Shown here piece by piece: positions 6,657 to 43,147 of a DNA stretch of 64,000 nt; the first letter of the stretch is position 1, and the number at the start of each line of letters is the position of its first letter. The DNA comes from a virus. The stretch lies in IMG/VR virus record IMGVR_UViG_3300044655_001643, one strand, 5' to 3'. A program made the translations under genes and the position numbers. Under the pieces are notes generated by a model, which searched no databases, had not been told where the DNA came from, and saw nothing but the letters and a program-made list of their open reading frames with translations.

Positions 6657-7184
6657 TTAGCAGTTCCACTTTCTCAAGGCTTTATTGATACGTGAATCTG
6701 GATCACGTGCTGTCTTTGCTGATGTGAGTCTGCGTTTCATGCCGCCCATTCTGGCGCAAAATGACTTACGACGGTTTGCTGCTTTAGAACCAGGCTTCAA
6801 CTTCGATGGCTTTGTTGTAACAGCCATTGATAACTTTGAACCAGGATTAGCACGACGATATGATTCAATACCTTTCCGATTCAAACCACCAGATTCAGAT
6901 TGACCTTCTTTGCGTGTCCATGCTTCACCTTCATCAAGTTCAATTTCTTCATTTCTAATTGCTTTGATTTGAGCATCTGTAGGTGCACCCTCTTCACCAG
7001 GTTTTCTCATGCGCTCACCACGGGCTCTTTTGGCACGAATGTTTGCCCACAATCCTGGGCGCTCTTCTTCTAGTTCTTCAACTTCTTCTTTGACACATGA
7101 GCCAGGAGAATAAGGTTTTTTACCTGGCACCGACTTATAGCCAGGCCAGCATCTCTCATCTAAGTGTTGTTTGAACGATTTCAT
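6657..7184 (-). CDS. modular basic protein (DUF6321-like C-terminus) with capsid-targeting-like N-terminus
   Basis: MKSFKQHLDE start; KEEVEELEE and EEIELDE linkers; RRKSFCARM...SRINKALRKWNC end. Confidence 0.7.
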   Translation of the reverse strand: MKSFKQHLDERCWPGYKSVPGKKPYSPGSCVKEEVEELEEERPGLWANIRAKRARGERMRKPGEEGAPTDAQIKAIRNEEIELDEGEAWTRKEGQSESGGLNRKGIESYRRANPGSKLSMAVTTKPSKLKPGSKAANRRKSFCARMGGMKRRLTSAKTARDPDSRINKALRKWNC

Positions 7185-10150
7185 ATGTAGTTTCTCTTTT
7201 TGAATGTTGTAAGTGAGATACCTTTTTTCTTCAACTCATCTTCTTTTTGATCGCCGATGCTTGCTGTTGTTTCATCGCCAGTCAATTCACTAATATTCTT
7301 TGGCACAACTTGTGTTGCTTTGCCCTTTTTGCTCAACTTCTCACCCATATCTCTTGCTGGTGATTCACCTGCACCAGCCATAGAAATGCCAGGCTCTATT
7401 CCTCTGTCGATTGACTCTTCGACTTTCTTCTGGAAGTTTTCTTTGATGGTGCTGAGACTGATGGTTCTTCTTCCTTCGGCAACGGGTTTGTCGGCGCTGG
7501 GTTTGTCTTTTCTTCCAAAACCGGTTCGAACTTTTCCAAGTTCTTTGGCTGACGGGGTGGACATATTCTGTCCATAAATTGCTTCAATAGCATTATCACT
7601 CGGTGAATAAAGCCCATGTCTTTCCTCTCTAAGTTTTACAGCGTACTTGTTGCCGACTTTTACAACAGTACCATTTTTCTGATGTGCTTCTTTTGCTGCT
7701 GTGCCACGAATGTAAAACAATCTTGGCTTGCCATTTTTGTCTGATAGAAGTTTTTGTTTTGTCTCTGTTTCTTCAAACTGTTTACCAATCAACTTTGTGC
7801 CAGAAACATGTTGAATCATTTTCCATGCTTCTTTGTGATTTTTGTTTGCTAAATGTTCTTTGAACTTTTTCTTTTGTTCATCGGTTGCTTTCTGATGAAA
7901 CTTCATGACTTCCATCATGCCGATGTTGCCTTCATATGCTGCTTCACTGATTTTGCCTTTGCCAAAACTTGATACATTGATTGGCTCACCCTTACGCTCT
8001 GGATTTGGATCGTGACGGCGTTTAGCAGCAACGGCAGATGCTCTTTCTTTCTTACTCAATGATGCACGTTTTTCGTTTGACATACATTTTGGTTTTGCTT
8101 CACCGGGTTCTCTAGCACAAGGACCAATTGCTTCACCTTTGCTATTGATGCGTTTCCAACCACCTTTTGGATGTTTTGGATCGAACCATTGACGTAAATC
8201 TTCTTTGATGAGTGGTGTGCCAAGTCTCAGTAGATTGTATGCACCTGGATCTGACATTGTATTGATATCTTGTTGCTCTTCTTCTGCCATCTCAACTTCA
8301 TCAGTTTTGAGTAACCGAATTGTTTTTGTTACTTCTTCTACAGTGTCACCAGTAATTGTAACTGTTACTGCTTCGTTGATAAACTTATCGAAACTATCAT
8401 TGACATTTTCTTTTTTCAGTTTACCGGAACTGCCAGCAACAGGCATGTTCTCAATTCTCTTTTGATGTGTTTCAACTGTCTTAGCAATCTTATCAACTGG
8501 CACTAAACTACCATGTACCGAACGATGTGTGACATGACCATCTTTACCGTAACGGCCGAAACCGTAATATTCTAATCCATTTTTCTGCATATCTTCGTGT
8601 GATCCTGCATCACCATGCGGCTGAACATCACGACGAATTGGTGCTGTATCTTTCTTACCTAATTCTGTTGCAATCCAACCTTTTGCTTCATCGTTCTTTG
8701 GTGGTGCAGCAACAAACTTTTGCATTGTCTTGAATATGCCATCAAGTTCTTTATTCTTTGCTTCAGCAACTTCTGGTGCCGCTGTACGTAAATCATCTGA
8801 GTTATCATACTCAATGTATTTGTCACGGAACAGTTTTGCGAATTGTGGTCGAGCATCTTGAACTGATTGCCATTTTTCTTTACGAATATCTTCTGGCACA
8901 GTACGACCGCCACGTTGACCACGTTCGATGTTTCTCTGCTTCGAAACTTCGTCTGCTGTATTGACCATGACCATGTGTGTATCATAGCCTATCTTTTCGA
9001 GCATCTCTTTTATCTTCAGGTATTTTTCGGGATCATCACCTGTGCCATTGATGATCAGACCATTGCGACCATGAAGTGCTAATCTTTGGCGCAACTCAGT
9101 TACATTCTTGGCACGTTTACGAACAGCATTACGTTGTGCTTCTTCGTTGCCTGGCATTGTTTTATCCAGACCTTCTTTGTCCATCAGATACTCAAGTGCT
9201 TTGTCTGAATTGATTTCAGTCAGACCATGACCATCTAATGTTTTTGATAGAACAAAATCTTTACCAGAACCGGGACCACCGCCTAAGAATACTGCTTTGA
9301 AAATACCTTTATCATGCACACCTTCAGTCAGTGTTTCTTCTTTGACTGTGTGATAATATGCTTCAGCATCTTTTTTGGATTTGAATGTTCTTTTTTGAGA
9401 TGAAACTGTGCCGTGAACTTCATACTCAACATGGTCAGAAGTTCTTCCAGATGGATTTGTTTTGCGAACAATCTTTGGCTCAGTCTTTACTGGTTTGATC
9501 ACATACTTACTAAATCTGCTCAAATCATTTTCATTGAGATCAACATCCTCTTTGATACTCATACCTTTGCGAACATCATTGAACATTTGTTTGACATGAG
9601 AATGTGACATTGTTGATGGTGCACCTTTTTTGAAATCTTCTAAGTTACCATTCTTGGCATGTTCACGCATCTTTGATGCTGAGATACCAGTTACACCTTC
9701 GGCATCTGGATCACGTTCGCCAGCAGAATGCACAGTAATTTTTTTGAAATTGAAACGGGCACCTTCATGTGTGCCATTATATTTGTGAAGCAAACGGTGA
9801 TATTCTTCCACACGGTCAGAACCACCGACCATGTGTAGATGCGTTACGCCTTGCTTGTGAAGTTTTTCAGCATGGTCAAAAAAAGTAGGCGCTTCTTTTG
9901 ATGACGCTGTGAAGTTGGTGCCAGGAAAAGCACGACTGGCATGTTTTACTTTTTGTTCTGCTGAGAGGGGATTCTTCTTTGCATCCTGTGAGTGTGACAG
10001 GACTATGTGATGTGAGCCACCAACTTTGGTAGCAATATCTTTGACTTTATCAACCAACTTCTGATGACCAGAAGTGATTGGATTCATACGCCCAAAGGCT
10101 AAAACGGCATGTTTTTCTTTCTGTTCACGCAGAAAATCTCTAAATTTCAT
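7181..10150 (-). CDS. multidomain protein: cytidylyltransferase-like (HxGH superfamily) domain, P-loop kinase (zeta-toxin/AAA_33-like) and small basic modules
   Basis: FGRMNPITSGHQKL, GGSDR and SASKMRE motifs; GGGPGSGKD Walker A and IINGTG; MKFRDFLRE start. Confidence 0.8.
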   Translation of the reverse strand: MKFRDFLREQKEKHAVLAFGRMNPITSGHQKLVDKVKDIATKVGGSHHIVLSHSQDAKKNPLSAEQKVKHASRAFPGTNFTASSKEAPTFFDHAEKLHKQGVTHLHMVGGSDRVEEYHRLLHKYNGTHEGARFNFKKITVHSAGERDPDAEGVTGISASKMREHAKNGNLEDFKKGAPSTMSHSHVKQMFNDVRKGMSIKEDVDLNENDLSRFSKYVIKPVKTEPKIVRKTNPSGRTSDHVEYEVHGTVSSQKRTFKSKKDAEAYYHTVKEETLTEGVHDKGIFKAVFLGGGPGSGKDFVLSKTLDGHGLTEINSDKALEYLMDKEGLDKTMPGNEEAQRNAVRKRAKNVTELRQRLALHGRNGLIINGTGDDPEKYLKIKEMLEKIGYDTHMVMVNTADEVSKQRNIERGQRGGRTVPEDIRKEKWQSVQDARPQFAKLFRDKYIEYDNSDDLRTAAPEVAEAKNKELDGIFKTMQKFVAAPPKNDEAKGWIATELGKKDTAPIRRDVQPHGDAGSHEDMQKNGLEYYGFGRYGKDGHVTHRSVHGSLVPVDKIAKTVETHQKRIENMPVAGSSGKLKKENVNDSFDKFINEAVTVTITGDTVEEVTKTIRLLKTDEVEMAEEEQQDINTMSDPGAYNLLRLGTPLIKEDLRQWFDPKHPKGGWKRINSKGEAIGPCAREPGEAKPKCMSNEKRASLSKKERASAVAAKRRHDPNPERKGEPINVSSFGKGKISEAAYEGNIGMMEVMKFHQKATDEQKKKFKEHLANKNHKEAWKMIQHVSGTKLIGKQFEETETKQKLLSDKNGKPRLFYIRGTAAKEAHQKNGTVVKVGNKYAVKLREERHGLYSPSDNAIEAIYGQNMSTPSAKELGKVRTGFGRKDKPSADKPVAEGRRTISLSTIKENFQKKVEESIDRGIEPGISMAGAGESPARDMGEKLSKKGKATQVVPKNISELTGDETTASIGDQKEDELKKKGISLTTFKKRNYI

Positions 10151-10182: not shown

Positions 10183-10196
10183 TATTTAGTATTTAG
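10183..10196 (-). promoter_or_regulatory. tandem late-promoter variants (CTAAATA x2)
   Basis: Same variant precedes gp18 and gp19; lies upstream of the 989-aa gene. Confidence 0.55.
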
Positions 10197-10903
10197 TAGA
10201 TTTCTAGCGCACCTGTGCCAGCCACAGTGCCACGGCAATGAATAGTATCTAATTCTATGAGTTTATCAGAATCTATGTTGAAAAAGTGAGCATGTTCAGT
10301 GTCAACACCAGTATCCATGATGACATCAATGTTTCTTCTGCAAGCAATAGCATAGTCATCTATAAGACTTGGACAGAAAGAGAATAATCGAGTAATCAAC
10401 AAGTCGGTAAATGTTTCTTGACGTTCGCCTTGTAGCCATGTTGGCATACGTTTCTTGAACACGTACTTACCAAAATGATTGTGTTCATTCACATCAAAGC
10501 CTTCATCTATGTCAGTTCTTCCTGATAGTTTGTAGATTCTACTGACAGATTGTAACAGTCGCATCATTCCTTGTTCGTATTTTAGAACAGACAATACTTT
10601 CAGCATCAACACATTTTCTGCTTCACTTTTACGACCAGTTGAAGCAAACTGAGAGATATCTTTATCGCCAGAAAAATCAGCAACTAGATCAACCAATGCT
10701 TGCATCTGCTCATACTTCTCGACCTCAACCTTTTCTGGCGAACCATCAGCAAGTAAAATGATTGCTTCTGGACACCTTTCACGTAATGATAGCAAACCAT
10801 CTAATGTTTGTTGAAGTCTAAGATCACGATTGATGACACCCATTTGAGGATTCAAAGCAGATGTTACAATAAACAACTGTTTGTTTGGTATTATTGATGC
10901 CAT
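10193..10903 (-). CDS. hypothetical protein, possibly glycosyltransferase-like
   Basis: 236 aa; FIVTSAL...YKLSGR pattern seen in glycan gene clusters; last gene of the cyclase cluster. Confidence 0.5.
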   Translation of the reverse strand: MASIIPNKQLFIVTSALNPQMGVINRDLRLQQTLDGLLSLRERCPEAIILLADGSPEKVEVEKYEQMQALVDLVADFSGDKDISQFASTGRKSEAENVLMLKVLSVLKYEQGMMRLLQSVSRIYKLSGRTDIDEGFDVNEHNHFGKYVFKKRMPTWLQGERQETFTDLLITRLFSFCPSLIDDYAIACRRNIDVIMDTGVDTEHAHFFNIDSDKLIELDTIHCRGTVAGTGALEIY

Positions 10904-11559
10904 TCTGACTCCGGAAATACTTTCACTGTTTTATAAATTGACTTTGATTTGATTACATGCATAATCAAGTCTGTAACTTCTTTTACTTCCATTAGTTTTT
11001 GTTTATTTGGATTTGTATTCTGCATCGGTGTTTCCATGCCACCAGGATGGATGCTTGTCACTTTGATTTTTCTGCTTCTTAGTTCTTTGCCAATGATACC
11101 AGCAAATGCAGTAAGAGCATGTTTTGATGCTGCATAGACTGCTTCATTTTCTATCTCATATAAGCCAGCAACAGAATTGATGAATATAATATTTGATTCA
11201 TCGTTCATAAAATCTAATGCTTCATTGGTCACATACATTGTGCCTTTGACATTTGTATCAATTATTTTATCAATTTTCTTTGATGTAAATTTGCCAAACT
11301 CACCACACTCAAATACACCAGCGTTGTTTACAAGCACATCAATATAAGAGCCAATATGTTTGAATGCTATCTTGACTTCTTCGGCATCTGTGATATCACA
11401 TTCAATCCATTCAAATGTATCTGGATATGAATATAAACTCATAGATGGTTGTGAACGTGACAGCCCATAAACAAAATAGCCTTCATCAATGAGTTTATCA
11501 CAAATTTCATAACCCAGTCCATAACTACAACCAGTCACCACAGCAATTTTACGCATCAA
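10891..11559 (-). CDS. short-chain dehydrogenase/reductase (SDR)
   Basis: TGCSYGLG, NNAG and YAASK motifs. Confidence 0.9.
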   Translation of the reverse strand: MMRKIAVVTGCSYGLGYEICDKLIDEGYFVYGLSRSQPSMSLYSYPDTFEWIECDITDAEEVKIAFKHIGSYIDVLVNNAGVFECGEFGKFTSKKIDKIIDTNVKGTMYVTNEALDFMNDESNIIFINSVAGLYEIENEAVYAASKHALTAFAGIIGKELRSRKIKVTSIHPGGMETPMQNTNPNKQKLMEVKEVTDLIMHVIKSKSIYKTVKVFPESEWHQ

Positions 11560-12692
11560 ATCTCCTCAAAAACATCAATCGCCAGTTTCATTTCATCTTC
11601 AGTGACATCATTTACAATCTTGTAGTTACCAATACTGATTGGCAATGGTACGTACTGATTGCCATTACGATGTTTTGTGGCATCACGCAGGCTTTCTAAC
11701 AACATCTTCATGTTTGTGAAGTCGGGATGAAATGTTTTGAGTTTCAATCTTTTTGCAACATTGAAAATTCTTCCGAGTTCATCGGTGCCAATGTAGCCAC
11801 GAATAAATGAAATGCATGAACTATACAGGCAATCAAGTGCCACTGCTTCACCATGCAGTAGATTTGGTATATTTGCCATCTCAATTACAGGGCTAAATGT
11901 GTGACCAAAATCTACGCAACGATCAAGTCGTTTTTCCCATAAATTTGGACCAAGCTCTGCAATCATATCTGTGATAGCAAGATTGATGACACGAACTGGC
12001 ACTGCACCATACTGAAACTTTTCGTCAATCAACATCTCAGCATTTTCTTCTAGCAACTGAAATAGTTCTGGTGATTTGATCACAGCAAGTTTGAATATCT
12101 CTGCTATACCATTGACAATCTCACGTTCACTTTGTGTCTTGATGAACTTCTTGTCGATATAAGTTGCAACTGGTGGATAATATGCACCGATTCGATTACG
12201 GCGACCAAGATGATTGACTGCTACTTTTGAACCGACGGAGGCATCAACAATCGCCAGAAGTGTTGTGGGGATTTTGATATATGGAATTCCACGACGATAA
12301 ACGCTGCAAGCAAACCCAACAATGTCAAGCAAGACACCACCACCAATGGATAATACTTCTTCACGGCGTAACACTCCATTCTGTTCAAAGAACTCTAAGA
12401 TGCGATCAAGGTTTTTCCAAGTTTTATTTTCTTCTTTACAATCAACACAAAGAAGGTTCATTGTCAGTTTATTGACATGAAAGTATTCTTCTAACTTATC
12501 TTTATAAAGATCATAAACTTCAGCATCAATTACAATGATTCTACGATTGCTCGTAGACAGATTGACAATATCTTTGTTTTCTGGATTGAATATATCTGCT
12601 GAGTACGTAAGTTTGAATTCAACTGGCAGTTCTGTTTTTACTGACCAAGTTCGTTTGAACTTGTCATAATCCATCATGAAATCTTCACTCAT
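11556..12692 (-). CDS. sedoheptulose 7-phosphate cyclase, 2-epi-5-epi-valiolone synthase (EEVS)-like
   Basis: DHQS fold (GGGVLLDIVG, IPTTLLAIVDASVG, HGEAV) plus EEVS-type ELGPNLWE..LDRCVDFGHTFSP. Confidence 0.85.
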   Translation of the reverse strand: MSEDFMMDYDKFKRTWSVKTELPVEFKLTYSADIFNPENKDIVNLSTSNRRIIVIDAEVYDLYKDKLEEYFHVNKLTMNLLCVDCKEENKTWKNLDRILEFFEQNGVLRREEVLSIGGGVLLDIVGFACSVYRRGIPYIKIPTTLLAIVDASVGSKVAVNHLGRRNRIGAYYPPVATYIDKKFIKTQSEREIVNGIAEIFKLAVIKSPELFQLLEENAEMLIDEKFQYGAVPVRVINLAITDMIAELGPNLWEKRLDRCVDFGHTFSPVIEMANIPNLLHGEAVALDCLYSSCISFIRGYIGTDELGRIFNVAKRLKLKTFHPDFTNMKMLLESLRDATKHRNGNQYVPLPISIGNYKIVNDVTEDEMKLAIDVFEEI

Positions 12693-13642
12693 ATCATTAC
12701 CTTACGCAACAATCTACAAGCATGAACATAAAAATACTTTGCTTTATCTACATCACCAGCAAGCAACTTGAAAGGAAGCATACGAATAAACTGTGTTGCT
12801 TCAAGTATATCTATGAGTTGCATTTTATCTTCAGGAAGATTACTGATGAAGTGCTTGTTGAATATCTCAAAGTTTTCCGGCACAGGATTTGGATTAGAAA
12901 CATCATAACCCACAACACGAACACCTTTATCGTTGATGTAGCCATAATGACTTCGTGAACACTGAAGAACTTGTGAGTAGTCAAGATACTTTGTGTTCCA
13001 CATGCTTTCATCATAAACATCAATGAAGATTACACGATTTTCTTCAAATGAATACAGAATGTTTTCAAGTGTAGGATTGCCATGAATGTTATGTCCTTCA
13101 GTATCTTCTATTTCTCTGAAGTAATTCTCAAGATCATAAAGATAGCCAGCAATGCCTGTAATGATTTCATTATCAAATTCATGTGTGCCATTGTAGAAGA
13201 AATCTTCAAAAGATTGAATTCTTACAGAGTCCATTATCTTCTGTTCAACTTCTTCACGATAGTATAACTTAGGACAACCTTTTGCTATTTCAGAAGAATG
13301 TGAATGAATTGTGTCTAGACCTTTCCAGACAGCAGAACTAATATTGAAAATTTGATCCTCTGTCAAATTGTCTTGACTGAGAATTGTTTTGATGTCACGA
13401 AAGTTTTGAAAGTATTCAATATCAAACCAAGCAGTATCACTGTTAGCACCGACATCAAGCACTTTAGGAAACAAACCAGGATAAAGTGAATTATATCTTT
13501 GCAGTTTCATTAGTTGTGAATACCAACGCATGAAACCATACTCACGATTCTGCTTTCTTGATACTTCTTTTCTGACGATGTTTTGATGTGGCACAATGTA
13601 AGTCTTACTCAATGAGCCACCTTTCAGTGGAATAGTATTCAT
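12689..13642 (-). CDS. APH/choline-kinase-like phosphotransferase
   Basis: LKGGSLS Gly-rich start; HGNPTLENIL and IFID motifs. Confidence 0.65.
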   Translation of the reverse strand: MNTIPLKGGSLSKTYIVPHQNIVRKEVSRKQNREYGFMRWYSQLMKLQRYNSLYPGLFPKVLDVGANSDTAWFDIEYFQNFRDIKTILSQDNLTEDQIFNISSAVWKGLDTIHSHSSEIAKGCPKLYYREEVEQKIMDSVRIQSFEDFFYNGTHEFDNEIITGIAGYLYDLENYFREIEDTEGHNIHGNPTLENILYSFEENRVIFIDVYDESMWNTKYLDYSQVLQCSRSHYGYINDKGVRVVGYDVSNPNPVPENFEIFNKHFISNLPEDKMQLIDILEATQFIRMLPFKLLAGDVDKAKYFYVHACRLLRKVMI

Positions 13643-14370
13643 CTTGCACCTAATGTTTGTCTTGCTATCTCAATTCCATATTCTTGTGGACTACCCAAAA
13701 CGATTGTGTCTTGATAATTGCCAAGGCCATTCATGCAACTTCGCATATCATTCTTCAACATACTCTGAATAACATCTGAAATATACAACTCATCTCTCTC
13801 TTGAACAACACTGTGACATTCATTCAAATATAAAGATGCTGATGAGAAGCCATATAGACCAGATGATGCATACGGAGATATTTGTTTCTTCTCTACAATC
13901 TCAGTAACTATTCCTTCATAAGCACGAACATAAGAATATTTTGGTGAGTTACCCACAAATACATCAACATAGACATCGTACCAATCGTTCATCTGTTTCA
14001 CAATTTCTTCAAATTTACGACCAGTAAGAATCGTATCTGCATTGTGAACAAACGTAGGCAACATCATGTGTTCAATTTGTGTCATGCCTATTGCTGCTGT
14101 ATGTGCTTGACCTTTTGTGTCGCCAATATAAAGAATGTTTTCACCATTCAAACCTAAAGGTTGAATTGCTTCAATTAGTTGATTGCTGAAATATTTGTCT
14201 CTGTTATTTGCTACAAGAACAGTTTGTCGTGTTGGTCCTAGATTTTTTAGAATTTCATGAATGATAGTTGTGCCGTTCCAAGGCAGCAGATACTTTGGAA
14301 TATCAAAGCCAACATCATGAAAGCGGGTGTTATAACCCGCCATGCAAATAATAAGATTTACTTCAGCCAT
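13639..14370 (-). CDS. sugar-phosphate nucleotidyltransferase (NTP_transferase family)
   Basis: MAGYNTRF...PKYLLP, TKGQAHT, HNAD and IVEKK motifs. Confidence 0.8.
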   Translation of the reverse strand: MAEVNLIICMAGYNTRFHDVGFDIPKYLLPWNGTTIIHEILKNLGPTRQTVLVANNRDKYFSNQLIEAIQPLGLNGENILYIGDTKGQAHTAAIGMTQIEHMMLPTFVHNADTILTGRKFEEIVKQMNDWYDVYVDVFVGNSPKYSYVRAYEGIVTEIVEKKQISPYASSGLYGFSSASLYLNECHSVVQERDELYISDVIQSMLKNDMRSCMNGLGNYQDTIVLGSPQEYGIEIARQTLGAR

Positions 14371-15071
14371 TCTTCCATATCATTTCGTAAAAGGGAATGC
14401 CATGTGCTGTTGTATTCACCAGGTGAAAATGGATGATTTACATCACAGTAAACAAGATTTTCACCAACAAGTCCATGTCTCTTCCAGTTAGCACTCATAA
14501 AATCTTCCATCATGTATTGTACACCAGAATCATAGAACTCGTCAATATGATTATAGGCATCTGCATACTTGTCCATATTTTCTGATGATGAGAACGCAAA
14601 TTGGTCATTACCAAAATCACGATTGGGTGTCATACGACAATTCGGAATGTGTAACTTGCTGTTATCAAGTTCTCCAAATGGTATACGAACATTGATTGCA
14701 AAGTCAAAACGTGACCGAATAACCCAATCAAACTTCATGTTATGATATTCTTCGTACTCACGCTTTGTTCGCATACACTCTTTGATTGCATACAATTGTG
14801 CAAATGTTGACATACGACCATCTTTTACTTTCCAGTTTGGTGATGGTGGCGGTGTGTTTGTATACTTTGACAAATCAACTGTAGGATTTGGTGATGTAAT
14901 GAAACTGTGTGCATTATACTTTGCAGAAATTTCTTGCATCTGTTCACCAGGCATTTCCCATGAGTGTAGAAACACAGTTACATCATTGTCTCTGATAATG
15001 TTTTCGTAGTGATATGCATGACCTTTTTCCCACATACGTGGTTGGCCCGAAATACACAGTGCTATTTTCAT
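14358..15071 (-). CDS. putative glycosyltransferase-like protein
   Basis: KIALCISGQPR...FDWVIRSRFD...NDQFA pattern common in viral glycan clusters. Confidence 0.55.
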   Translation of the reverse strand: MKIALCISGQPRMWEKGHAYHYENIIRDNDVTVFLHSWEMPGEQMQEISAKYNAHSFITSPNPTVDLSKYTNTPPPSPNWKVKDGRMSTFAQLYAIKECMRTKREYEEYHNMKFDWVIRSRFDFAINVRIPFGELDNSKLHIPNCRMTPNRDFGNDQFAFSSSENMDKYADAYNHIDEFYDSGVQYMMEDFMSANWKRHGLVGENLVYCDVNHPFSPGEYNSTWHSLLRNDMEEWLK

Positions 15072-15748
15072 AGTTCTCTTCCTACGTTTGCTTTGTTGTC
15101 TGTTACACCGAAAGGTTTCAAATGTTCTTTCTCCATAACAACCATTGAGTTGTAGAATGCAACTGAATAAAGATTGTTATATGTGTTCAGCACATTCCCA
15201 TCGATTGGTGTACCTTGAAAGTGTTGTTGATTGAGAATATCAGTTACACGTTTTGAATGCTCTGTAAATGTACCCGCACCACGGAATACGCCACCCCACG
15301 GCTGAGGCCAGTAACTAGTGTGAGTATCTTCACAAACAAATACGCCACCTTCTTTGATGTGTGGAAATACTTTGTTCAATGTTGTAATTTGATGATTCAT
15401 TACATGTGAGCCATCATCAATGACAATATCAAACTTGTTTTGTGTTTTCAGAAATTCATCCCAGAATGCAGGATCACTTTGGTCACCCATCACAATTTTG
15501 ACATCACCAGTGTATTCATACTTCAAACAATCTTCATTGATATCAAGACCAACAACTGATGTGCCAGGTCCAAAGTATTTCAACCACAGTTCGATTGAAC
15601 CACCACCAAGAATACCAATTTCTAAGATGCGTGGTGCTTTACCAACAAACTTTTTTAGATGTCTTTCATATACATCAAAGTAGCCTGACCACTTGGTAGA
15701 TGGTTTATCTAATTCCCAAAATAATTCTTTGATTCTATTTGTCGTCAT
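15068..15748 (-). CDS. class I SAM-dependent methyltransferase (MycE/TylE sugar O-methyltransferase-like)
   Basis: RILEIGILGGGS, GDQSD, FDIVIDDGSH and EDTHTSYW motifs; start probably MTTN at 15748. Confidence 0.8.
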   Translation of the reverse strand: MTTNRIKELFWELDKPSTKWSGYFDVYERHLKKFVGKAPRILEIGILGGGSIELWLKYFGPGTSVVGLDINEDCLKYEYTGDVKIVMGDQSDPAFWDEFLKTQNKFDIVIDDGSHVMNHQITTLNKVFPHIKEGGVFVCEDTHTSYWPQPWGGVFRGAGTFTEHSKRVTDILNQQHFQGTPIDGNVLNTYNNLYSVAFYNSMVVMEKEHLKPFGVTDNKANVGREL

Positions 15749-16577
15749 ATTTTGCCTCAATCACTTTTCGCCATTCTGGTACACGATCATACTGATGAAC
15801 TATAGTATACTCTATTCCTTCTGAAGTTACAACTTTATCACCCTCTAATTTCGGTGATGGTTCAAGTAAATGCGGTCTAAATGATTCAATCTTACTTGGA
15901 TCGGCAGTTGTGCCTAGCTGACATGCCCAACCAGATTCTGAATTCGTATACTGACTTGTTTTCAGATATGGATGTCTTGAAATAAGGAAGTTGAAAACTG
16001 CTTGATCAACGATTGGTATTGGACGATTGATTGAGTTGACAAACAAATTCAACAACAAATCTTTCATTGCGTATGCACGACCAGCAAGAACACCTACATT
16101 GAAAATCGTGTTATTCTTGAAGTCATCATAAATTCCTTGACCAAAACATTGTGTGAGATTTTCTTTACCCCATGGTTCATCTTTATATTTCATACTCTCA
16201 GAAGCAAACACCAAATCTTCTGAGTCTGATAAATTCTCTTCTAGCCACTTAGATGGATTCTTTTGAAAGATTACATCTTTTACATCAGTGGTAATTGCAA
16301 ATCTGTATTCGTTGGATTTGAGTAATTTGTAAATGTGGACAAAACGTTCAACATGTACCATCAAATGAGATTGATATGTGAGGTTACCTTCACCATCTTG
16401 ATTGAATGCTATGATTGAGAAGCCTGCGTCACTTACTTTCTGTACAGTGTTTTTGTCGCAGTTCATGAGAATCAGAACTTTATCACCCTCAAAGCCTGAT
16501 TGATTGATTGAATTTACCCAGTATTTCAAAGTTGACCAAGTGTAATTGGTCGCACAGCCTACGATCACGTCCTTCAT
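15735..16577 (-). CDS. GT-A-fold glycosyltransferase-like protein
   Basis: TTDVKDVIFQ (DxxD), NVGVLAG, DQAVFN and IVHQYDR motifs. Confidence 0.6.
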   Translation of the reverse strand: MKDVIVGCATNYTWSTLKYWVNSINQSGFEGDKVLILMNCDKNTVQKVSDAGFSIIAFNQDGEGNLTYQSHLMVHVERFVHIYKLLKSNEYRFAITTDVKDVIFQKNPSKWLEENLSDSEDLVFASESMKYKDEPWGKENLTQCFGQGIYDDFKNNTIFNVGVLAGRAYAMKDLLLNLFVNSINRPIPIVDQAVFNFLISRHPYLKTSQYTNSESGWACQLGTTADPSKIESFRPHLLEPSPKLEGDKVVTSEGIEYTIVHQYDRVPEWRKVIEAKYDDK

Positions 16578-19346: not shown

Positions 19347-19354
19347 TATTTATA
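19347..19354 (-). promoter_or_regulatory. T4-type late promoter TATAAATA
   Basis: Exact consensus overlapping the gp41 stop, 28 nt upstream of ATG 19319. Confidence 0.75.
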
Positions 19355-26021: not shown

Positions 26022-26510
26022 CTATACTTGTTGAACACCGATATTACACTTTTTCAAAAATTCAATACCATCTATAGTTCGGTAGTTATGTCGATAGTAA
26101 ACCTCCTTGATTGCTGCTTGATGTATTATTTTAGCACATTCTAGACACGGTGCATGGGTCACAAACAAACTTGCCGACTCACTGCTGTTTGTTGACCGAG
26201 AAACTTTGGCGATTGCATTTGTTTCGGCATGCAATACCTCTTTTTTGGAATGTAATCGACTCCATCCATGGGCAGATTCGGTATAGCCATTATGCATCAT
26301 GAATTTATCACTTTGTCGGCATTCTTCTTTGAGAATATATTCAACATCTTCACAGTTATTATCCCAACCAGATGGCATACCGTTATAACCGATGCCGATA
26401 ATTGTGTTGTCTTTGACGATTACGCAGCCAACTTGTAATCTTTTTGCGGTAGAAAGTTCAGCATAGACTTCTGCTGCCTTCATGTGGGCTTGTATAAATT
26501 TTTCTTTCAT
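26022..26510 (-). CDS. cd: dCMP deaminase
   Basis: GYNG, HAETNA and APCLECAK zinc motifs; start probably MKEKF. Confidence 0.9.
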   Translation of the reverse strand: MKEKFIQAHMKAAEVYAELSTAKRLQVGCVIVKDNTIIGIGYNGMPSGWDNNCEDVEYILKEECRQSDKFMMHNGYTESAHGWSRLHSKKEVLHAETNAIAKVSRSTNSSESASLFVTHAPCLECAKIIHQAAIKEVYYRHNYRTIDGIEFLKKCNIGVQQV

Positions 26511-26561
26511 AGATGTAAGCACTCACTTCACTTGTAAGGCACGACGAAAAAATGTATCCGA

Positions 26562-27377
26562 TTACTCTAATATCACAAGTGTTTTTCTAGCCACCGATGC
26601 TTGATTAGCATATAAGAAGAATGGCAAGAATCTTTCACCTAAGAATCCTGGATAACGCCACGGTAATGGCTCTGTTGTTGTCGCTTGTGTTGGATAAACT
26701 TGATTTGTGTTCTGCCACACATACTCAAGCAGTTCAAATAACTCTGATGCATATTTTCTGAATAGTTGTTTACGCATCACATAACATGTTTCAAAACTTG
26801 CTTCATTCTGGTCCCACCAGTTCAGTGAGTCTCTGTAATCTGGCATCAACTTTTCAATGCCTTCTAGAAACAGATTCAGATACTCTGCTGGTTGTGATTG
26901 AAGATATTGATTACGAACAGAGTATGGCATCGATGTCAGTTTGTTCGTAATCGCATCATGTTCTTTGAGAAGTTCAAGTGCCGCTGCTTTCTGCTCATTT
27001 GACACCATGTACTCAGCATTCTCTTGTGTCGCTGGTAGACTTGCTTTCACCACATTCTCTTCTATGTCACCTTTGAAGTCAAGATAGCGACGGTATGTGG
27101 TGCAGCCGATGTAATCTGCACGACCATGCTTCCACAAATAATACTCGGATGCTTGTTGACCCAATGCACGAAGAAACTCATCTTCACTACACATTGTGTA
27201 ATATTGACGGTATTCATAAACACTCTTGTGCATTGATGTATTGATCCAGTTACCTGGACCAGGAGCTTGCCAGCCATATGGACCATGTGAGCCAGCGTAT
27301 GCTGCCTTCATCCAAGAGCAATTATGATCGAATGGAAAGTCTTTGTGAAAATGACTTACCATTAACAGATCAGTCAT
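26562..27377 (-). CDS. DUF4422-family (GT111-like) glycosyltransferase
   Basis: DYIGCTTYRRY and RYPGFLGERF motifs; start MTDLL at 27377. Confidence 0.65.
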   Translation of the reverse strand: MTDLLMVSHFHKDFPFDHNCSWMKAAYAGSHGPYGWQAPGPGNWINTSMHKSVYEYRQYYTMCSEDEFLRALGQQASEYYLWKHGRADYIGCTTYRRYLDFKGDIEENVVKASLPATQENAEYMVSNEQKAAALELLKEHDAITNKLTSMPYSVRNQYLQSQPAEYLNLFLEGIEKLMPDYRDSLNWWDQNEASFETCYVMRKQLFRKYASELFELLEYVWQNTNQVYPTQATTTEPLPWRYPGFLGERFLPFFLYANQASVARKTLVILE

Positions 27378-27534
27378 TGCTTTGTTCCTCTTTTTTCTTC
27401 TTTTTGAATTCGATGCGTGGAGCAATGATTGCGTTGATCATTTCACGTTTGTAATCGTGTTTTTTCTCACCACTCAATGAAGTCAATAAGACTTTGAGGG
27501 ACTTGTCCATTTTGAAGTTTGAGTTAGATTTCAT
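27370..27534 (-). CDS. small basic hypothetical protein (54 aa, not in ORF track)
   Basis: Manual translation MKSNSNFKMDKSLKVLL...EFKKKKKEEQSND; fills the gap and overlaps the next start. Confidence 0.6.
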   Translation of the reverse strand: MKSNSNFKMDKSLKVLLTSLSGEKKHDYKREMINAIIAPRIEFKKKKKEEQSND

Positions 27535-27572: not shown

Positions 27573-28052
27573 TTACGCTGCCGCCTTTTCTTCTTGTAGA
27601 AGTTGAGGCTCAAACGTTTTTAGTTCATTACCAATTTCAATCTTGCGTGGCTTCTTATGCTCTGGAATGATGTTCTCTAGACCAATGCGTAGAATACCAT
27701 CTTTGAATTCAGCGCCCTTCACTTCAATCGTATCAGCAATAGTGATTGCCTTAGTGAAAGAACGTGTGCCAATTCCACGATGTAAATACTGAACGTCAGA
27801 TGTACCGACTTTCTTATCACCTTTGATAGTCAAAGTATTTTCTTGTACTTCAATATCAATTTCATCTTTACTAAAACCAGCAACAGCAAGTTCTACCACA
27901 TACTTGTTCTCATCTGCTTTGATGATGTTATGTGGTGGAAAATTGTTTGTTGGTCTAGAATCGTTTAGAATTGCTTCAACATCACGAATAAAGTTTTCAA
28001 AGCCCAATGTTTGATTGAGAACCATTGGACCAAAGCGACCAGTAATAGTCAT
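27573..28052 (-). CDS. hsp20: small heat-shock protein (Hsp20/IbpA-like)
   Basis: FPPHNI, ELAVAGF, YLHRGIGTRSF and DGIL motifs. Confidence 0.92.
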   Translation of the reverse strand: MTITGRFGPMVLNQTLGFENFIRDVEAILNDSRPTNNFPPHNIIKADENKYVVELAVAGFSKDEIDIEVQENTLTIKGDKKVGTSDVQYLHRGIGTRSFTKAITIADTIEVKGAEFKDGILRIGLENIIPEHKKPRKIEIGNELKTFEPQLLQEEKAAA

Positions 28053-30739: not shown

Positions 30740-31009
30740 TTATTTCCTCGTCAAATCGTGGTTATGTAAAGCCATTATAGCGTAGTGAACGACTTTTAGC
30801 AAGTCATCCCTGTTATAGCCATTCTTTTTACCATAACGCTGTGCATACTTCATAATATTTCCAATAAAGAATCCTTCACCGTGCCCACAGTCTATGATGA
30901 ATTCTGATGTTTGGAATTTATTGAGTGAGTAGTGTTGACCGTATGTCTTGTCGATGTACTGCTTTAGTTCGGCAAGAATACGATCTTCACTATACTTGTA
31001 CTCTATCAA
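30740..31009 (-). CDS. DUF3310-like protein
   Basis: HY...GFFIGNIMKYAQRYGKK...DLLKVVHYA. Confidence 0.7.
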   Translation of the reverse strand: MIEYKYSEDRILAELKQYIDKTYGQHYSLNKFQTSEFIIDCGHGEGFFIGNIMKYAQRYGKKNGYNRDDLLKVVHYAIMALHNHDLTRK

Positions 31010-31821
31010 AGTCTACCAGTATACTGTGCAACAGCGGGCATGTTGCCAGTAAATGCATATGTACCAATGTGTTGAGTTCTCATCCATGGACACAACCAAA
31101 CTTGTCCACCAATCTTACGCCACATTTGACAGAACATATAATCTTCTGATAGATAACGATCAGAACCACCACCAACGCATGAATCAACAGTATCAATCAC
31201 CGTATCGAAATACGCATGAATGTAACGTGAACCATCGAAGTGTGCTTGTCCAACATGATCAGGTTTGTAACGAATGAATGGATATGCTTCTTTGAGTTTA
31301 TCAAAAACACCACGCTTGATCATCATATGACCTGTGCCAATCTCCATAACTTCTAGAGGATCAGATACTTGAAATTGTTGCGTACCCTTGACTACATTGA
31401 ATACATATTCACCAACAAGATTTTCAAGTTCTTTTGGATTCAAGTCTGGATGTTTACGTGCAGTTTCAGCAATATTACCCCAATTGATAGACTTCTTAGG
31501 ATAAGGACCACCGATAACATCTTTGTCGAGTGCAAGGAGAGCAACAACATCATTCGGATCGAAATGAATATCTGAATCGATAAACATCATGTGTGTAAAA
31601 TCTGTACGTAGAAATTCATCTACCAAATAATTTCTTGCACGTGTGATGAGGGATTCGTTGAAGAGAAATGAAAACTTTGTTTCAATACCATAACGAATCA
31701 TAACAGTTTGAAGATCAAGGCAAGATTTCATATACAAGCCATGATTCATACCGCCATACATTGGCGTTGCTACGAAAAGTTTGTTTTTTCTTAGTTCTTC
31801 AATATTGACTTCTATTTTCAT
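31006..31821 (-). CDS. GT-A-fold glycosyltransferase-like protein
   Basis: VATPMYGG, NESLITRARN, FIDSD (DxD) and YLSEDYMFC motifs. Confidence 0.65.
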   Translation of the reverse strand: MKIEVNIEELRKNKLFVATPMYGGMNHGLYMKSCLDLQTVMIRYGIETKFSFLFNESLITRARNYLVDEFLRTDFTHMMFIDSDIHFDPNDVVALLALDKDVIGGPYPKKSINWGNIAETARKHPDLNPKELENLVGEYVFNVVKGTQQFQVSDPLEVMEIGTGHMMIKRGVFDKLKEAYPFIRYKPDHVGQAHFDGSRYIHAYFDTVIDTVDSCVGGGSDRYLSEDYMFCQMWRKIGGQVWLCPWMRTQHIGTYAFTGNMPAVAQYTGRL

Positions 31822-32281: not shown

Positions 32282-33478
32282 TTAGAAAGGAATTTCTTCT
32301 TTATCTACCGTGCTTGCAGCAGATTCGGAATCTTTAGCAATGGTAGTCTCATCAGCACCACCATCAACTTTGGTATACAAGTCAAGGAATGTTGCAGCAG
32401 TATCAGCATCAAAACGATTCAAGCAGTATTTAATTGCTTTTGTTTTGTCACCGAAGATACCATACGTTTTGACAATGTGAACCAGACGGCGTGTTGAGAT
32501 AACTTCATCACAGCCACCATCAGCAAACGTATTACGAATTACAGTAGCCCAAGTGACAAGTTTTTTGGCAAAGTCATCATCATTCTTACCAACAGAGGAC
32601 AATTCTTTTTGGATGATTTTGTTTTCAACTTTCGTTGGTGGCCATTCTTGTTCCATTGTGTTAGGAAAACGTTCAAGAAACGCCTCATTCAACACGTTGG
32701 TAAACATATAGCGACCATCTTCGGAACCCTTACCCTTAGTGTTAGCAGTAGCAAACACAGTAAAGCCAGGCGCTGGTGAAACCAGCTCATTCTTTTTCTT
32801 TAGCAAGAATGGCTTACCCTCAAGTACCCGCTGTAAGCACGACAAGTTTTGTGCGCCGTAATCAATCTCATCAATACAGAGTACAGCACCCTGACGGGCT
32901 GCAACAGTCACAGGACCGTCACGCCATTCCATCTGACCGTTGATCAAAACATAGTTACCAAGCAAATCAGATTCATCGGTATCTGGTGTCATTGATACGC
33001 AAACAAACTTACGTTTGGCTTTAGCACAGGCTTGTTCAATCGACATTGTTTTACCGTTACCAGAATGACCCGTAACGAAAACAGGGAAGAACATATTTGA
33101 TTGTACAATTGACAACACATCTTCAAAGTTGCCAAAAGGTACATAGTTAGCATATTGAGAAGGAATCAGATTCTCAGTCTCAAGATCAGTTGTCACATTG
33201 GCAATACGATTGCCAGATTGATTGGTAGGCTGAGCCAGTGGAATCACTTGTGCAGCCATGTTGATAGCAGCAGCCGCTGCCGGTGCCGCTCTGGATGCAG
33301 CAGGAACACGATACACACCACGCTTGACTTTGTTTGATTCATCATTGACGAACCATTGTGGGATAGGAATACTTAGCTTTTCAGCAATTGTTACAACATC
33401 AACTTTTGTAACTTCAGATTTGCCAGTTGCAATAAGAGCATCAATAAACAACTGACGTTTAGCGGCACGACTTGCCAT
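32282..33478 (-). CDS. cobS: CobS-like MoxR AAA+ ATPase
   Basis: GHSGNGKT, IDEID, ATANTKGKG, NEAFLERF and ISTRRL motifs. Confidence 0.88.
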   Translation of the reverse strand: MASRAAKRQLFIDALIATGKSEVTKVDVVTIAEKLSIPIPQWFVNDESNKVKRGVYRVPAASRAAPAAAAAINMAAQVIPLAQPTNQSGNRIANVTTDLETENLIPSQYANYVPFGNFEDVLSIVQSNMFFPVFVTGHSGNGKTMSIEQACAKAKRKFVCVSMTPDTDESDLLGNYVLINGQMEWRDGPVTVAARQGAVLCIDEIDYGAQNLSCLQRVLEGKPFLLKKKNELVSPAPGFTVFATANTKGKGSEDGRYMFTNVLNEAFLERFPNTMEQEWPPTKVENKIIQKELSSVGKNDDDFAKKLVTWATVIRNTFADGGCDEVISTRRLVHIVKTYGIFGDKTKAIKYCLNRFDADTAATFLDLYTKVDGGADETTIAKDSESAASTVDKEEIPF

Positions 33479-35851: not shown

Positions 35852-35880
35852 ATAGTATCAGGGTTATGTATGTTTGTCAA
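35852..35880 (-). promoter_or_regulatory. sigma70-type early promoter
   Basis: TTGACA-N17-TACTAT upstream of the cobT-like gene. Confidence 0.7.
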
Positions 35881-36773
35881 GTCTTGAAATTTGTTACCAA
35901 TTTCATACCATATTCATCGTTACTTTTTGGCAACATGATGTCTTTTTTGTAACGAAGTTCATTCTTCTTGAATGGTGAATAGTCCACATAGTGGTGCCAG
36001 CGTTTATATCGCCAGACCATTCGTGCTACATCAGGGTGCATTCTTACCAGCATCTCAGATTTGTTTCTTGTACCTTCAGCATTCACACCATCAATCCAGA
36101 TATTCTTTTCTAGACCTTCTTTGTGGTAAAACTCTTCAGTGTTACCACCCTTGACAGTTTGTGTTGCTGCTTTACCTTGCAAGAATGCATTGAACTGAAT
36201 CGTGCAATCACCATCTTTCAAAACACGCAGACAAATATCAGTATCTTCATTGTAACGACCACGCCAACGATGTTTACAATTATTATCTATCAATAATGTG
36301 GAATAGATTCGTGTGTTCTTTACATAAGGTGGATAACTTTGATTTGGTGCAATAAAGAATCGATACTGAAAGCCAGAGATTGGAACATTCTCAAATCGAT
36401 CAACGAAATCTTCTGCGGCTTTGAAGATAACACCAGACTCTACACGAATACGATAGTTCTGATGAAGTCTATAGAAGTCAGAGATGTTATCGTCAAGTAC
36501 CCAATGCTTGTCGGCACCGATTGAGATAGAATGATCCCATGCAAAGTTTCTAGCACGACCAGGACCATCACCGTGATTACTGAATGGTGCAACAATCAGT
36601 GTTACATAGTCACGAATGTTGAACTTGTCTAGTGCTTTATCATATGCTTCTTCATCTTGTGGCTCAACCACAATGTAGTGTGGCACTCTCATTCTCGACA
36701 ATGATTTTGATGTAATCATTGTGTCTGAACGACCCTTAGAAACGATATAAACTGGATTCGTTGGATTTGTCAT
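35877..36773 (-). CDS. TAGT/GREB1-like glycosyltransferase (putative DNA base modification)
   Basis: PVYIVSKGR, ARNFAWD, HWVLDDNI and WRGRYNEDTD motifs. Confidence 0.7.
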   Translation of the reverse strand: MTNPTNPVYIVSKGRSDTMITSKSLSRMRVPHYIVVEPQDEEAYDKALDKFNIRDYVTLIVAPFSNHGDGPGRARNFAWDHSISIGADKHWVLDDNISDFYRLHQNYRIRVESGVIFKAAEDFVDRFENVPISGFQYRFFIAPNQSYPPYVKNTRIYSTLLIDNNCKHRWRGRYNEDTDICLRVLKDGDCTIQFNAFLQGKAATQTVKGGNTEEFYHKEGLEKNIWIDGVNAEGTRNKSEMLVRMHPDVARMVWRYKRWHHYVDYSPFKKNELRYKKDIMLPKSNDEYGMKLVTNFKT

Positions 36774-37536: not shown

Positions 37537-37883
37537 TCTTCAATCCATCTCTTCAAAGAATTCTCATCCCTTTCTAGTTTTGGATACCAGATAGACTTTG
37601 TTTTCTCTGTAAGATTCTGATCAACTAATTTGGCAAATGCTTCATAATCTTCTTTGTTTCGAAAATGAAGATATAAGGTCTTGTATGTTTTCTTTTCATT
37701 TTGCTCAAACGCCGGCATACCTACCCAATGTTTTTGCCACTCAGCATTTTGAGTATCTACGCCATCATCTTCATCATCAGATTCACCAAAAAAACGATTG
37801 AGAGTTGGTGGTTGATATTCGTCAGTCAACAACTCCATACAGTTTTCATATGTGGTAGATTCTTTAGCATCAGAAGTTTTCAT
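37533..37883 (-). CDS. hypothetical protein of the type found next to TAGT-like genes
   Basis: WVGMPAFEQ...HFRNKEDYEAF...TKSIWYP. Confidence 0.65.
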   Translation of the reverse strand: MKTSDAKESTTYENCMELLTDEYQPPTLNRFFGESDDEDDGVDTQNAEWQKHWVGMPAFEQNEKKTYKTLYLHFRNKEDYEAFAKLVDQNLTEKTKSIWYPKLERDENSLKRWIEE

Positions 37884-38448
37884 TTTTCTTTCCTCTAATT
37901 ATTTTCTTTACCAATTTTGTTGCTTTCTGTCTTGCCATTTTCAAAGCAAGAGGCTTCACATGATCAGTATATCTGATTCCGTTCAAATGATCAAGCTCAT
38001 GTAGGAAACAACGTGCAGATAATCCGTGTAACTTTACCTGATTTACGTTACCATTTTCATCAGTAAATTCTACTTCAATCCATGATGGTCGATCAACATT
38101 CAAAAACAATGCTGGATAAGATAAGCATCCTTCTTTGTCTTTTACCACTGGGCCTTGATCAATTACTTTTGGATTGATACAGACTAGTTGAAACTCTTCT
38201 GTACCAATTACAAACATCCTCTCAGCAACGCCACATTGATTCGCAGAAAGACCAAGACCAGCGTACAACTTCATTGTCATCTTCAATCGTTTTGCTAATG
38301 TGACCATTGCGGGTGCTGGATATCCACCAGTATATTCTGGTATTCTTTGACCGAGCATAGAGAATTCTTCTCCGTAAACACGAAGAGGTTCAATTCTTTC
38401 TGATGTCTGTAAACCAGCAGTAGTATCAATTGTTAGAATTTCACTCAT
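37870..38448 (-). CDS. def: peptide deformylase
   Basis: GLGLSANQ, EGCLS and HELDHLNG motifs. Confidence 0.93.
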   Translation of the reverse strand: MSEILTIDTTAGLQTSERIEPLRVYGEEFSMLGQRIPEYTGGYPAPAMVTLAKRLKMTMKLYAGLGLSANQCGVAERMFVIGTEEFQLVCINPKVIDQGPVVKDKEGCLSYPALFLNVDRPSWIEVEFTDENGNVNQVKLHGLSARCFLHELDHLNGIRYTDHVKPLALKMARQKATKLVKKIIRGKKNENF

Positions 38449-43146: not shown

Positions 43147-43147
43147 A

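Follow-up and report, generated by a model that had tools for sequence, protein, structure and literature searches.

Background

The closest described counterpart of the locus reported here is the guanosine diphosphate (GDP)-valienol branch of the acarbose and validamycin pathways (AcbC/ValA, AcbN, AcbU, AcbR/ValB and AcbS/VldE), in which a 2-epi-5-epi-valiolone synthase (EEVS)-type cyclase acting on sedoheptulose 7-phosphate (S7P), a reductase, a kinase and a nucleotidyltransferase yield a nucleoside diphosphate (NDP)-cyclitol that is used by transferases. The locus is a cassette of eight open reading frames (ORFs), named A to H in order of transcription (A, B, C, D, E, F, G, H), at positions 10193-16577 on the minus strand of a 64,000-nt stretch of DNA, one strand of the virus record IMGVR_UViG_3300044655_001643; the whole stretch is referred to below as the window. 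Gene content marks the window as a piece of the genome of an uncultured marine T4-like myovirus: it encodes the major head protein (64.7% identical to that of cyanophage P-TIM40), the portal, the sheath, the large terminase, UvsX and a gp43-type polymerase. From the protein families encoded, it is on balance probable that the cassette, a pathway complete in itself, makes a nucleotide-activated C7-cyclitol (carbasugar) from S7P and installs it in a glycoconjugate.

An earlier sequence-only reading of the locus took the acarbose and validamycin pathways as its model, and the cassette's series of cyclase, reductase, kinase-like protein, nucleotidyltransferase and transferases does resemble the NDP-valienol branch. 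The cassette is nevertheless not a member of that pathway: it was tried as one and rejected, no ROK 7-kinase, 2-epimerase, dehydratase or GT-B (glycosyltransferase fold B) pseudoglycosyltransferase being found among the eight products. In place of a ROK-family 7-kinase the cassette has a protein of the aminoglycoside phosphotransferase (APH) fold whose catalytic Asp is replaced by Asn; its products include no recognised AcbO/ValD epimerase, AcbJ-type phosphatase or aminotransferase; and its nucleotidyltransferase is a short RmlA/GlmU-like protein, unlike that of the acarbose/validamycin route. AcbS and VldE are of the GT-B type, whereas the transferases of the cassette are of the GT-A fold or resemble GT-A enzymes weakly. 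The setting differs as well, a lytic phage and polysaccharide loci as against an actinomycete antibiotic cluster.

Other described systems share single features with the cassette. In the Lic phosphocholine pathway (LicA, LicC, LicD) and the cytidine diphosphate (CDP)-ribitol and CDP-glycerol routes, a kinase of the APH/choline-kinase fold and a small nucleotidyltransferase activate an alcohol for a surface glycan; in the cassette the alcohol would instead be a C7-cyclitol made by its own cyclase and reductase, and no LicD- or TagF-type transferase was detected. The adenosine diphosphate (ADP)-heptose pathway (GmhA, HldE, GmhB), which feeds lipopolysaccharide (LPS), also starts from S7P and applies a kinase and then a nucleotidyltransferase, but in the cassette a cyclase replaces the isomerase, the ring is carbocyclic and the enzyme families are unrelated. 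Gadusol (EEVS plus a methyltransferase-oxidoreductase) and mycosporines (desmethyl-4-deoxygadusol synthase (DDGS), O-methyltransferase and ATP-grasp enzyme) likewise bring together an S7P cyclase, a methyltransferase and an oxidoreductase; the cassette, by contrast, has an optional methyltransferase of the sugar O-methyltransferase type, no ATP-grasp gene, a cyclase without the DDGS fingerprint, and nucleotide-activation genes in its core. Finally, pelagimyophages and cyanomyophages are T4-like marine phages with LPS-type glycosyltransferase and sugar genes, including GT8-like enzymes, for which host-surface remodelling has been proposed (PMC7029224). Unlike the cassette, the pathways in those reports are ordinary sugar pathways; no mention of 'cyclase' was found in the reports, and no paper pairing 'pelagimyophage' with 'dehydroquinate' was found in the literature.

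Identity of the cyclase

Sequence comparisons support gene F (11556-12692, minus strand; 378 aa) as an EEVS-type S7P cyclase that is neither a 3-dehydroquinate synthase (DHQS) nor a DDGS; the label spans EEVS and 2-epi-valiolone synthase (EVS), no EVS being among the references. The translation matched PF01761 (E-value 3.6e-35) and PF24621 (E-value 3e-19) in Pfam, as expected of a DHQS-like two-domain fold, and holds the PNLWE-type motif that the sequence-only reading had quoted (...LGPNLWEKRLDRCVDFGHTFSPVIEM...). Against the PDB, F scored 285 bits to the validamycin EEVS ValA (4p53), 223 to the Anabaena DDGS (5tpr) and at most 143 to any DHQS. The predicted metal ligands of F, E198, H264 and H280, fall on a Glu, a His and a His that every reference shares.

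Reference cyclases were taken from annotated plasmid records and comprised ROK-kinase-adjacent cyclases of Streptomyces clavuligerus, Rhizobium rhizogenes, Agrobacterium vitis and Bacillus, a Nostoc DDGS whose mycosporine-type cluster also encodes an O-methyltransferase and a D-Ala-D-Ala-ligase-domain protein, an ebo-like cyanobacterial paralogue, and E. coli AroB. Besides the four genera with a ROK kinase next to the cyclase, fusion proteins also unite the two. In 2014 Kean et al. reportedly identified Leu267 and Asp281 of ValA as residues that separate EEVS from DDGS, in which they are Glu and Ala. This contrast was borne out by the alignments of ValA (...EELQPNLWE...VDFGH) and DDGS (...ELEVPNLHE...IAYGH). 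F, examined at the two sites and the neighbouring residues, carries L247 and D261, the EEVS pattern, as do the ROK-context references and 134 of the 140 nearest representatives; the Nostoc DDGS has Glu and Ala at these sites and E. coli AroB has Val and Asn. F further lacks the DDGS characters in having HTF and not HTW, and no ATP-grasp gene lies in the cassette. In a maximum-likelihood tree the phage cyclases formed a supported clade nested inside the radiation of Leu/Asp cyclases. The earlier EEVS-type assignment is therefore upheld by the ranking of scores (ValA over DDGS over DHQS), the Leu/Asp fingerprint and the tree position.

Pfam and several source annotations label F a DHQ synthase, as would fit an ordinary 3-dehydroquinate synthase boosting host shikimate metabolism. 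Against this, F reached 217.8 with the aroB equivalog model TIGR01357, under the cut-off of 305, and scored far higher to ValA (285 bits) than to any DHQS (143 or less); the Asp, Ala, Asn and His of E. coli AroB are replaced in F by N250, R258, D261 and P268; and no other shikimate gene is nearby. A shikimate role is considered extremely unlikely.

Enzymes of the proposed pathway

In the proposed pathway, each step of which is assigned from family membership, F would cyclise S7P to 2-epi-5-epi-valiolone or a close epimer (step 1), the short-chain dehydrogenase/reductase (SDR) G would reduce the ring ketone (step 2), E would phosphorylate a hydroxyl of the ring, probably, like AcbU, the C1-OH at the pseudo-anomeric position (step 3), D would make the NDP-cyclitol (step 4), A and H, perhaps with C, would pass on the cyclitol or build a short glycan containing it (step 5), and B, where present, would O-methylate a hydroxyl (step 6). 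Steps 3 and 4 have a precedent in the acarbose route, in which the 1-kinase AcbU acts on the C1-OH of valienol 7-phosphate and is followed by the phosphatase AcbJ and then by AcbR, giving GDP-valienol (PMC9200736).

Genes D, E, F and G form the core. The sugar-phosphate nucleotidyltransferase D (13639-14370, minus strand; 243 aa) belongs to PF00483 (46.8 bits over residues 7-217, cut-off 21.2), matched the NDP-sugar pyrophosphorylase 4evw in the PDB (E-value 7.9e-13) and groups by score with sugar-1-phosphate nucleotidyltransferases of the GlmU, RmlA and AglF kinds. G (10891-11559, minus strand; 222 aa) is a classical SDR (PF00106, E-value 3.4e-44) and by its family probably a ketocyclitol reductase.

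Gene E (12689-13642, minus strand; 317 aa) encodes a kinase-like protein of the APH/choline-kinase fold. Its AlphaFold2 model (predicted local distance difference test, pLDDT, 91.6) matched NahK (N-acetylhexosamine 1-kinase), APH(2''), methylthioribose (MTR) kinase, maltokinase, fructosamine-3-kinase and LicA choline kinase in Foldseek at E-values of about 1e-6, and in VIA the best match was 6ctz (Z 19.1, root-mean-square deviation (rmsd) 3.3 A, 260 residues aligned), in agreement with a bilobal kinase fold; LicA choline kinase (4r77) gave Z 17.5. The Gly-rich KGGSL loop, K25 and the Mg ligands N194 and D208 (FID) are invariant. The Brenner motif HxDxxxxN, placed by sequence pattern and by its position before model strands 195-198 and 203-206 and not by residue-level structural alignment, reads H187-G-N189-P-T-L-E-N194 (HGNPTLEN), with Asn in place of the catalytic Asp. 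All 16 phage orthologues and four homologues at greater distance share N189. A catalytic Asp-to-Asn substitution is a means of disabling APH-type kinases, and PDB entry 8i85, among the VIA matches of E, is the D189N mutant of such a kinase. Phosphorylation by E is not assured, because Asn replaces the catalytic Asp; this position is the weakest link in the proposed pathway.

Of the transferase-like proteins, A (15735-16577, minus strand; 280 aa) matched the glycosyltransferase family phrog_1579 (E-value 8.5e-5), and its orthologues matched Pfam GT_PLOD (9 of 15, best E-value 4e-4) or Nucleotid_trans (3 of 15). D98 and D101, in a TDVKD stretch, are invariant. These faint matches suggest that A is probably a GT-A-type nucleotide-sugar transferase. 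Gene C (14358-15071, minus strand; 237 aa) is a DUF7796 protein: PF25072 was matched by all 16 orthologues (best E-value 7.4e-8), C itself matched phrog_13607, and distant relatives (24-28% identity) occur in Synechococcus myophages, some of them annotated 'capsular polysaccharide biosynthesis protein'. H (10193-10903, minus strand; 236 aa) matched no sequence family, and its fold is assigned from the predicted model (AlphaFold2, pLDDT 88.4). Foldseek placed H with glycogenin, alpha-3-GalT and LH3 (E-values about 1e-5; probability 1.00 to glycogenin and alpha-3-GalT), VIA gave Z 12.3 to GlcAT-P (rmsd 3.8 A, 199 residues aligned), and the nearest named ESM Atlas cluster was Glyco_transf_8 (TM score 0.65); H accordingly appears as a GT-A Rossmann-like, GT8-like transferase. 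It has no invariant DxD pair; R122, K125 and R129 are invariant and would lie near the usual DxD position. Metal-independent GT-A enzymes exist. Profile searches with A, C, E and H against PDB sequences returned nothing significant, profile-profile comparison among A, C and H gave no relationship with profiles that were shallow (Neff about 1.5), and ESM Atlas searches with C and H led mostly to the viral clusters of the two proteins themselves.

Gene B (15068-15760, minus strand; 230 aa) is an accessory S-adenosylmethionine-dependent sugar O-methyltransferase of the MycE/TylE type. It matched MycE (3ssm, E-value 8.7e-25) and TylE (8ia9, E-value 3.1e-20) in the PDB and phrog_21658 (E-value 7.8e-21), and scored 25 bits with Methyltransf_24, just below the cut-off of 26.3. 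It resembles post-glycosylation sugar O-methyltransferases, which act on glycosides.

Most gene labels of the sequence-only reading stood: the nucleotidyltransferase, cyclase and SDR in Pfam, the sugar O-methyltransferase through MycE and TylE, and the kinase in its APH/choline-kinase fold as modelled, though not in its catalytic Asp. Of the two genes called GT-like, the first (A) is weakly borne out and the second (C) is instead a DUF7796 protein, while the last gene, called hypothetical, is H, with a GT-A fold by predicted structure.

Several points weigh against a pathway that ends in glycosidic transfer of the cyclitol. Because no EVS reference was in the comparison, F is placed with EEVS and EVS jointly. 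In a saturated carbasugar the ring oxygen that would stabilise the transition state of glycosyl transfer is missing, and unsaturated GDP-valienol is the donor of the known pseudoglycosyltransferases, which are of the GT-B type; no AcbO/ValD-type epimerase or dehydratase was recognised among the eight cassette products. E has the invariant Asn where APH-type kinases carry the catalytic Asp, the assignment of A is weak, C belongs to a family without a function label, and the VIA score of H is tied with those of nucleotidyltransferases such as IspD, ISPD and GlmU. The steps themselves follow from family membership, and acceptor and host are inferred rather than observed.

The saturated ring without a ring oxygen and the lack of a recognised epimerase or dehydratase keep a Lic/Tar-like variant in play, in which the same NDP-cyclitol is made but the cyclitol phosphate is transferred as a phosphodiester with release of the nucleoside monophosphate, as from CDP-choline, CDP-glycerol and CDP-ribitol, E and D being the counterparts of LicA and LicC. 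Such a route would sidestep the missing ring oxygen and need no dehydratase or epimerase. LicA choline kinase is among the best structural matches of E, as given above; the basic invariants of H could bind phosphate directly, their placement at the DxD site being inferred; and the fold score of H is tied with the cytidylyltransferases IspD and ISPD. Set against these points, none of the cassette products was recognised as a phosphotransferase of the LicD, TagF or Stealth type, the scores of D place it among sugar-1-phosphate enzymes of the GlmU, RmlA and AglF kinds, and the neighbours of the core in non-phage loci are ordinary glycosyltransferases. Phosphodiester transfer is regarded as rather unlikely, while remaining the strongest competitor of the glycosidic pathway set out first.

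Distribution in phages

Relatives of F number in the thousands in marine metagenomes; the best 120 are all at least 73% identical, on contigs of up to 184 kb. Genes A to H are syntenic, in fixed order and position, in 26 related marine phage loci (cyclase identity 66-90%), flanked on one side by a DUF6267 gene and a gene for a small Fe-S protein and on the other by a zeta-toxin/AAA_33 polyprotein gene. A is present in every related locus that spans its position, and D and E are present throughout. The complete genome G001 (172,439 bp, with terminal repeats) contains every cassette gene except B. The co-conservation on which the sequence-only reading depended thus holds, with synteny in 26 loci and seven of the eight genes in the complete genome. 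B is the exception, being absent from L014 and from G001, and in L020-L022 the only methyltransferase match is distant (31-36% identity) and elsewhere in the locus. In L002 a carbamoyltransferase gene (12564-14072; Carbam_trans_N and Carbam_trans_C) directly follows H, which suggests an O-carbamoylated version of the product.

Cassette DNA had no match among 50,697 phage records. Protein searches of the phage collection returned for F only bacterial-type aroB (<30% identity), for E only Bacillus phage G (24% identity) and for A only one enrichment-culture virus (26% identity). By these sequence searches the cassette is in no cultured phage of the collection searched.

The pattern of gene presence bears on a release of the cyclitol as a free small molecule, either a gadusol-like UV screen, which had been offered earlier as the alternative, or a glycosidase-inhibiting pseudo-oligosaccharide that resembles acarbose or validamycin and is set free on lysis. 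The cassette has an SDR and a methyltransferase, and in vertebrates EEVS and a methyltransferase-oxidoreductase give gadusol (PMC4426668); acarbose, too, is assembled from an NDP-cyclitol by transferases (PMC9200736). Gadusol is nonetheless unlikely, because the methyltransferase is dispensable (missing in G001 and L014) while the nucleotidyltransferase and kinase-like genes are core and always present. B moreover resembles enzymes acting on glycosides, related loci carry the export genes Wzx, Wza and Wzz and not small-molecule exporters, and the cassette has no aminotransferase and only GT-A-fold or weakly GT-A-like transferases. A free product of either kind is judged improbable.

Related loci outside the phage group

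The nearest cyclase relatives outside the phage group were 45-54% identical to F (search without a word index). In non-phage loci, homologues of D, E and F (37-41%, 33-43% and 42-52% identity, respectively) occur together with an SDR or aldo-keto reductase. A genome assembly of 26% GC content (L045) has a methyltransferase, D (41%), E (33%), the cyclase (46%) and an aldo-keto reductase, next to Wza, Wzz, GT1, an O-acyltransferase (Acyl_transf_3), a HAD hydrolase and a cytidylyltransferase. Metagenome contigs P0249 carry an NTP_transferase, a 328-aa protein, the cyclase and an SDR, with WecG, GT1, GT2 and a Wzx flippase as neighbours; the metagenome contig P0246 has, from a 5' contig end with an unannotated first ORF, a 336-aa protein, the cyclase and an SDR, near a Wzx flippase, a heparinase-like gene and GT1/GT4 glycosyltransferases. 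In a metagenome locus of 31% GC (L049), D (37%), E (37%), cyclase (46%) and G (32%) lie beside GT2, GT47, a faint sulfotransferase match and two Methyltransf_24 genes. The SDR is 3' of the cyclase in L046 (with one ORF between), L049, P0249 and P0246, and an aldo-keto reductase takes its place in L045 and L047.

With polysaccharide export and glycosyltransferase genes as its neighbours, the four-gene core (nucleotidyltransferase, kinase-like protein, cyclase and reductase) looks like a unit that supplies a sugar precursor in surface-polysaccharide loci. Its presence in glycan loci points to the NDP-cyclitol as a glycan building block and argues against a sunscreen or a shikimate enzyme. The phage version extends this core by transferases of its own and, optionally, an O-methyltransferase.

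Many of the nearest non-phage cyclases (P0242, P0244, P0250, P0251, P0252, P0257) are fusions, mostly of a ROK kinase with a cyclase and about 600-770 aa long; among them are one fusion of an AMP-binding enzyme with a cyclase and one 2653-aa protein in which two cyclase domains are combined with a ROK domain and a zinc alcohol dehydrogenase.

These neighbourhoods also bear on whether the NDP-carbasugar might be a dead-end mimic of NDP-heptose or NDP-hexose that blocks host glycosyltransferases, the cyclase meanwhile draining S7P and host LPS being stripped or truncated. Their chemistry makes nucleotides of saturated carbasugars poor donors, and the logic of cyclase, kinase and nucleotidyltransferase parallels the GmhA/HldE route from S7P. 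A self-inhibitor makes little sense, however, inside the bacterial polysaccharide loci in which the core is found, and in the phage A, H, the DUF7796 protein and the O-methyltransferase travel with the core. We rate this poisoning of host glycosylation slightly below even the free small molecule.

Probable destination of the product

For an NDP-cyclitol that is used as a glycan building block, the most likely destination would be a polysaccharide on the surface of the infected cell, or its LPS, synthesised at a late stage of infection; the altered receptors might then exclude other phages, or keep progeny from sticking to debris. Virion glycosylation would be the next most likely destination. 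The sequence-only reading had named virion proteins, host surface glycans and DNA as targets. Of these, the surface glycan is favoured by the Wza, Wzz, Wzx and WecG genes of related loci, and DNA is disfavoured, a complete relative being without a TAGT match.

Modification of phage DNA was considered in view of a gene at 35877-36773 (minus strand) of the window, which encodes a 298-aa protein of the TET-associated glycosyltransferase (TAGT) family (Pfam, E-value 4.6e-44). It shares about 50% identity with proteins from T4-like phages of Aeromonas and Tenacibaculum to which RefSeq gives the name beta-glucosyl-HMC-alpha-glucosyltransferase (HMC, hydroxymethylcytosine). The gene hints that the DNA bases of the phage are glycosylated; those window ORFs that were scanned against Pfam included no hydroxymethylase. 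A second sugar cluster lies at 41212-48490 (minus strand) and comprises genes for a cytidylyltransferase-like protein, an SDR epimerase/dehydratase, a DegT-type aminotransferase, a GHMP kinase, a transketolase split into an N half and a pyrimidine/C half, and a B12-binding radical SAM enzyme. Neither TAGT nor transketolase, the latter taken as the marker of the second cluster, was present in five related cassette-bearing phage records, including the complete genome G001, and a link of the cassette with either was rejected. The same five records gave no match to the thymidylate-synthase family, of which we take gp42-type hydroxymethylases to be members, or to Tet_JBP, the latter search having had no positive control.

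The TAGT protein, with its similarity to the glucosyl-HMC glucosyltransferase-annotated Aeromonas phage proteins, is what speaks for a cyclitol or other cassette sugar that hypermodifies phage DNA. DNA is an unlikely target of the cassette because TAGT, hydroxymethylase-family and Tet_JBP matches are missing in cassette-bearing relatives; about 19 kb of DNA separates the TAGT gene from the cassette, and the non-phage homologues of the cassette are in polysaccharide loci. DNA hypermodification by the cassette is held to be very unlikely.

No paper tying valiolone synthases to phages or cyanophages was found in the full-text literature, in keeping with the sequence-only reading, whose author knew of no characterised phage pathway of the kind, and a 2026 cyclitol review mentioned neither phages nor polysaccharides.

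Genomic setting and host

Every gene in the window is on the minus strand, and neighbouring ORFs of the cassette overlap by 4 to 26 nt, as expected from the tight gene overlap described in the sequence-only reading. A candidate T4-type late promoter, TATAAATA, at 19347-19354 (minus strand) tentatively heads the co-directional gene run that ends with the cassette, and hints at its late expression. The window holds five matches to TATAAATA against 2.55 expected, a count that is not significant; at least three of the five are in gaps just upstream of genes, two of these in the head-gene region.

Directly downstream of the cassette, at 7181-10150 (minus strand), and in the same place in every related locus that reaches that far, lies the gene for a 989-aa multi-domain protein with an N-terminal cytidylyltransferase-like domain (phrog_3041, E-value 3e-64) and a Zeta_toxin/AAA_33 P-loop kinase domain; its counterpart in L001 is two separate genes. 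Two more glycan-type genes, with a DUF4422 match (E-value 3e-22) and a weak Anp1-like match, are at 26562-27425 and 31006-31821 (both minus strand). The phage invests heavily in glycan enzymes.

Genes for peptide deformylase (37870-38448), cobS (32282-33478), Hsp20 (27573-28052) and dCMP deaminase (26022-26522) were also found, all on the minus strand, the peptide deformylase gene lying inside the gp46/47 operon. No psbA-type gene was found in the complete relative G001, and on that ground a cyanophage host was judged unlikely. The lack of psbA, peptide deformylase in the gp46/47 operon and plentiful glycan genes have all three been described for pelagimyophages, whose genomes are rich in LPS-type glycosyltransferases, mostly GT8, that are proposed to alter the host O-chain (PMC7029224). 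By these genes the phage looks pelagimyophage-like rather than cyanophage-like, and its host is probably a low-GC marine heterotroph.

Conclusions

The cassette is a real, conserved and abundant feature; its enzyme families are known, and their setting, in lytic marine phages and in surface-glycan loci, was in no paper found. To our knowledge carbasugar chemistry is otherwise known only from antibiotics and sunscreens. Somewhat short of an even chance is given to a wider reading, in which carbasugars are a building block of the surface glycans of ocean microbes, T4-like phages have captured the pathway to decorate the cell or virion, and the Asn-type E represents a new subclass of cyclitol kinases with a mechanism of its own. 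Small and soluble, the four-gene core could supply NDP-carbasugars as tools for glycobiology. If the wider reading is true, the compound class of validamycin, acarbose and gadusol would also be a glycan monomer for marine bacteria and very abundant uncultured phages, and the use of S7P would add a link between phage infection and host pentose-phosphate metabolism. A linkage without a ring oxygen would not be expected to be cleaved by glycosidases or phage depolymerases, and by resisting them a carbocyclic residue would be a new kind of move in the conflict between phage and host over receptors.

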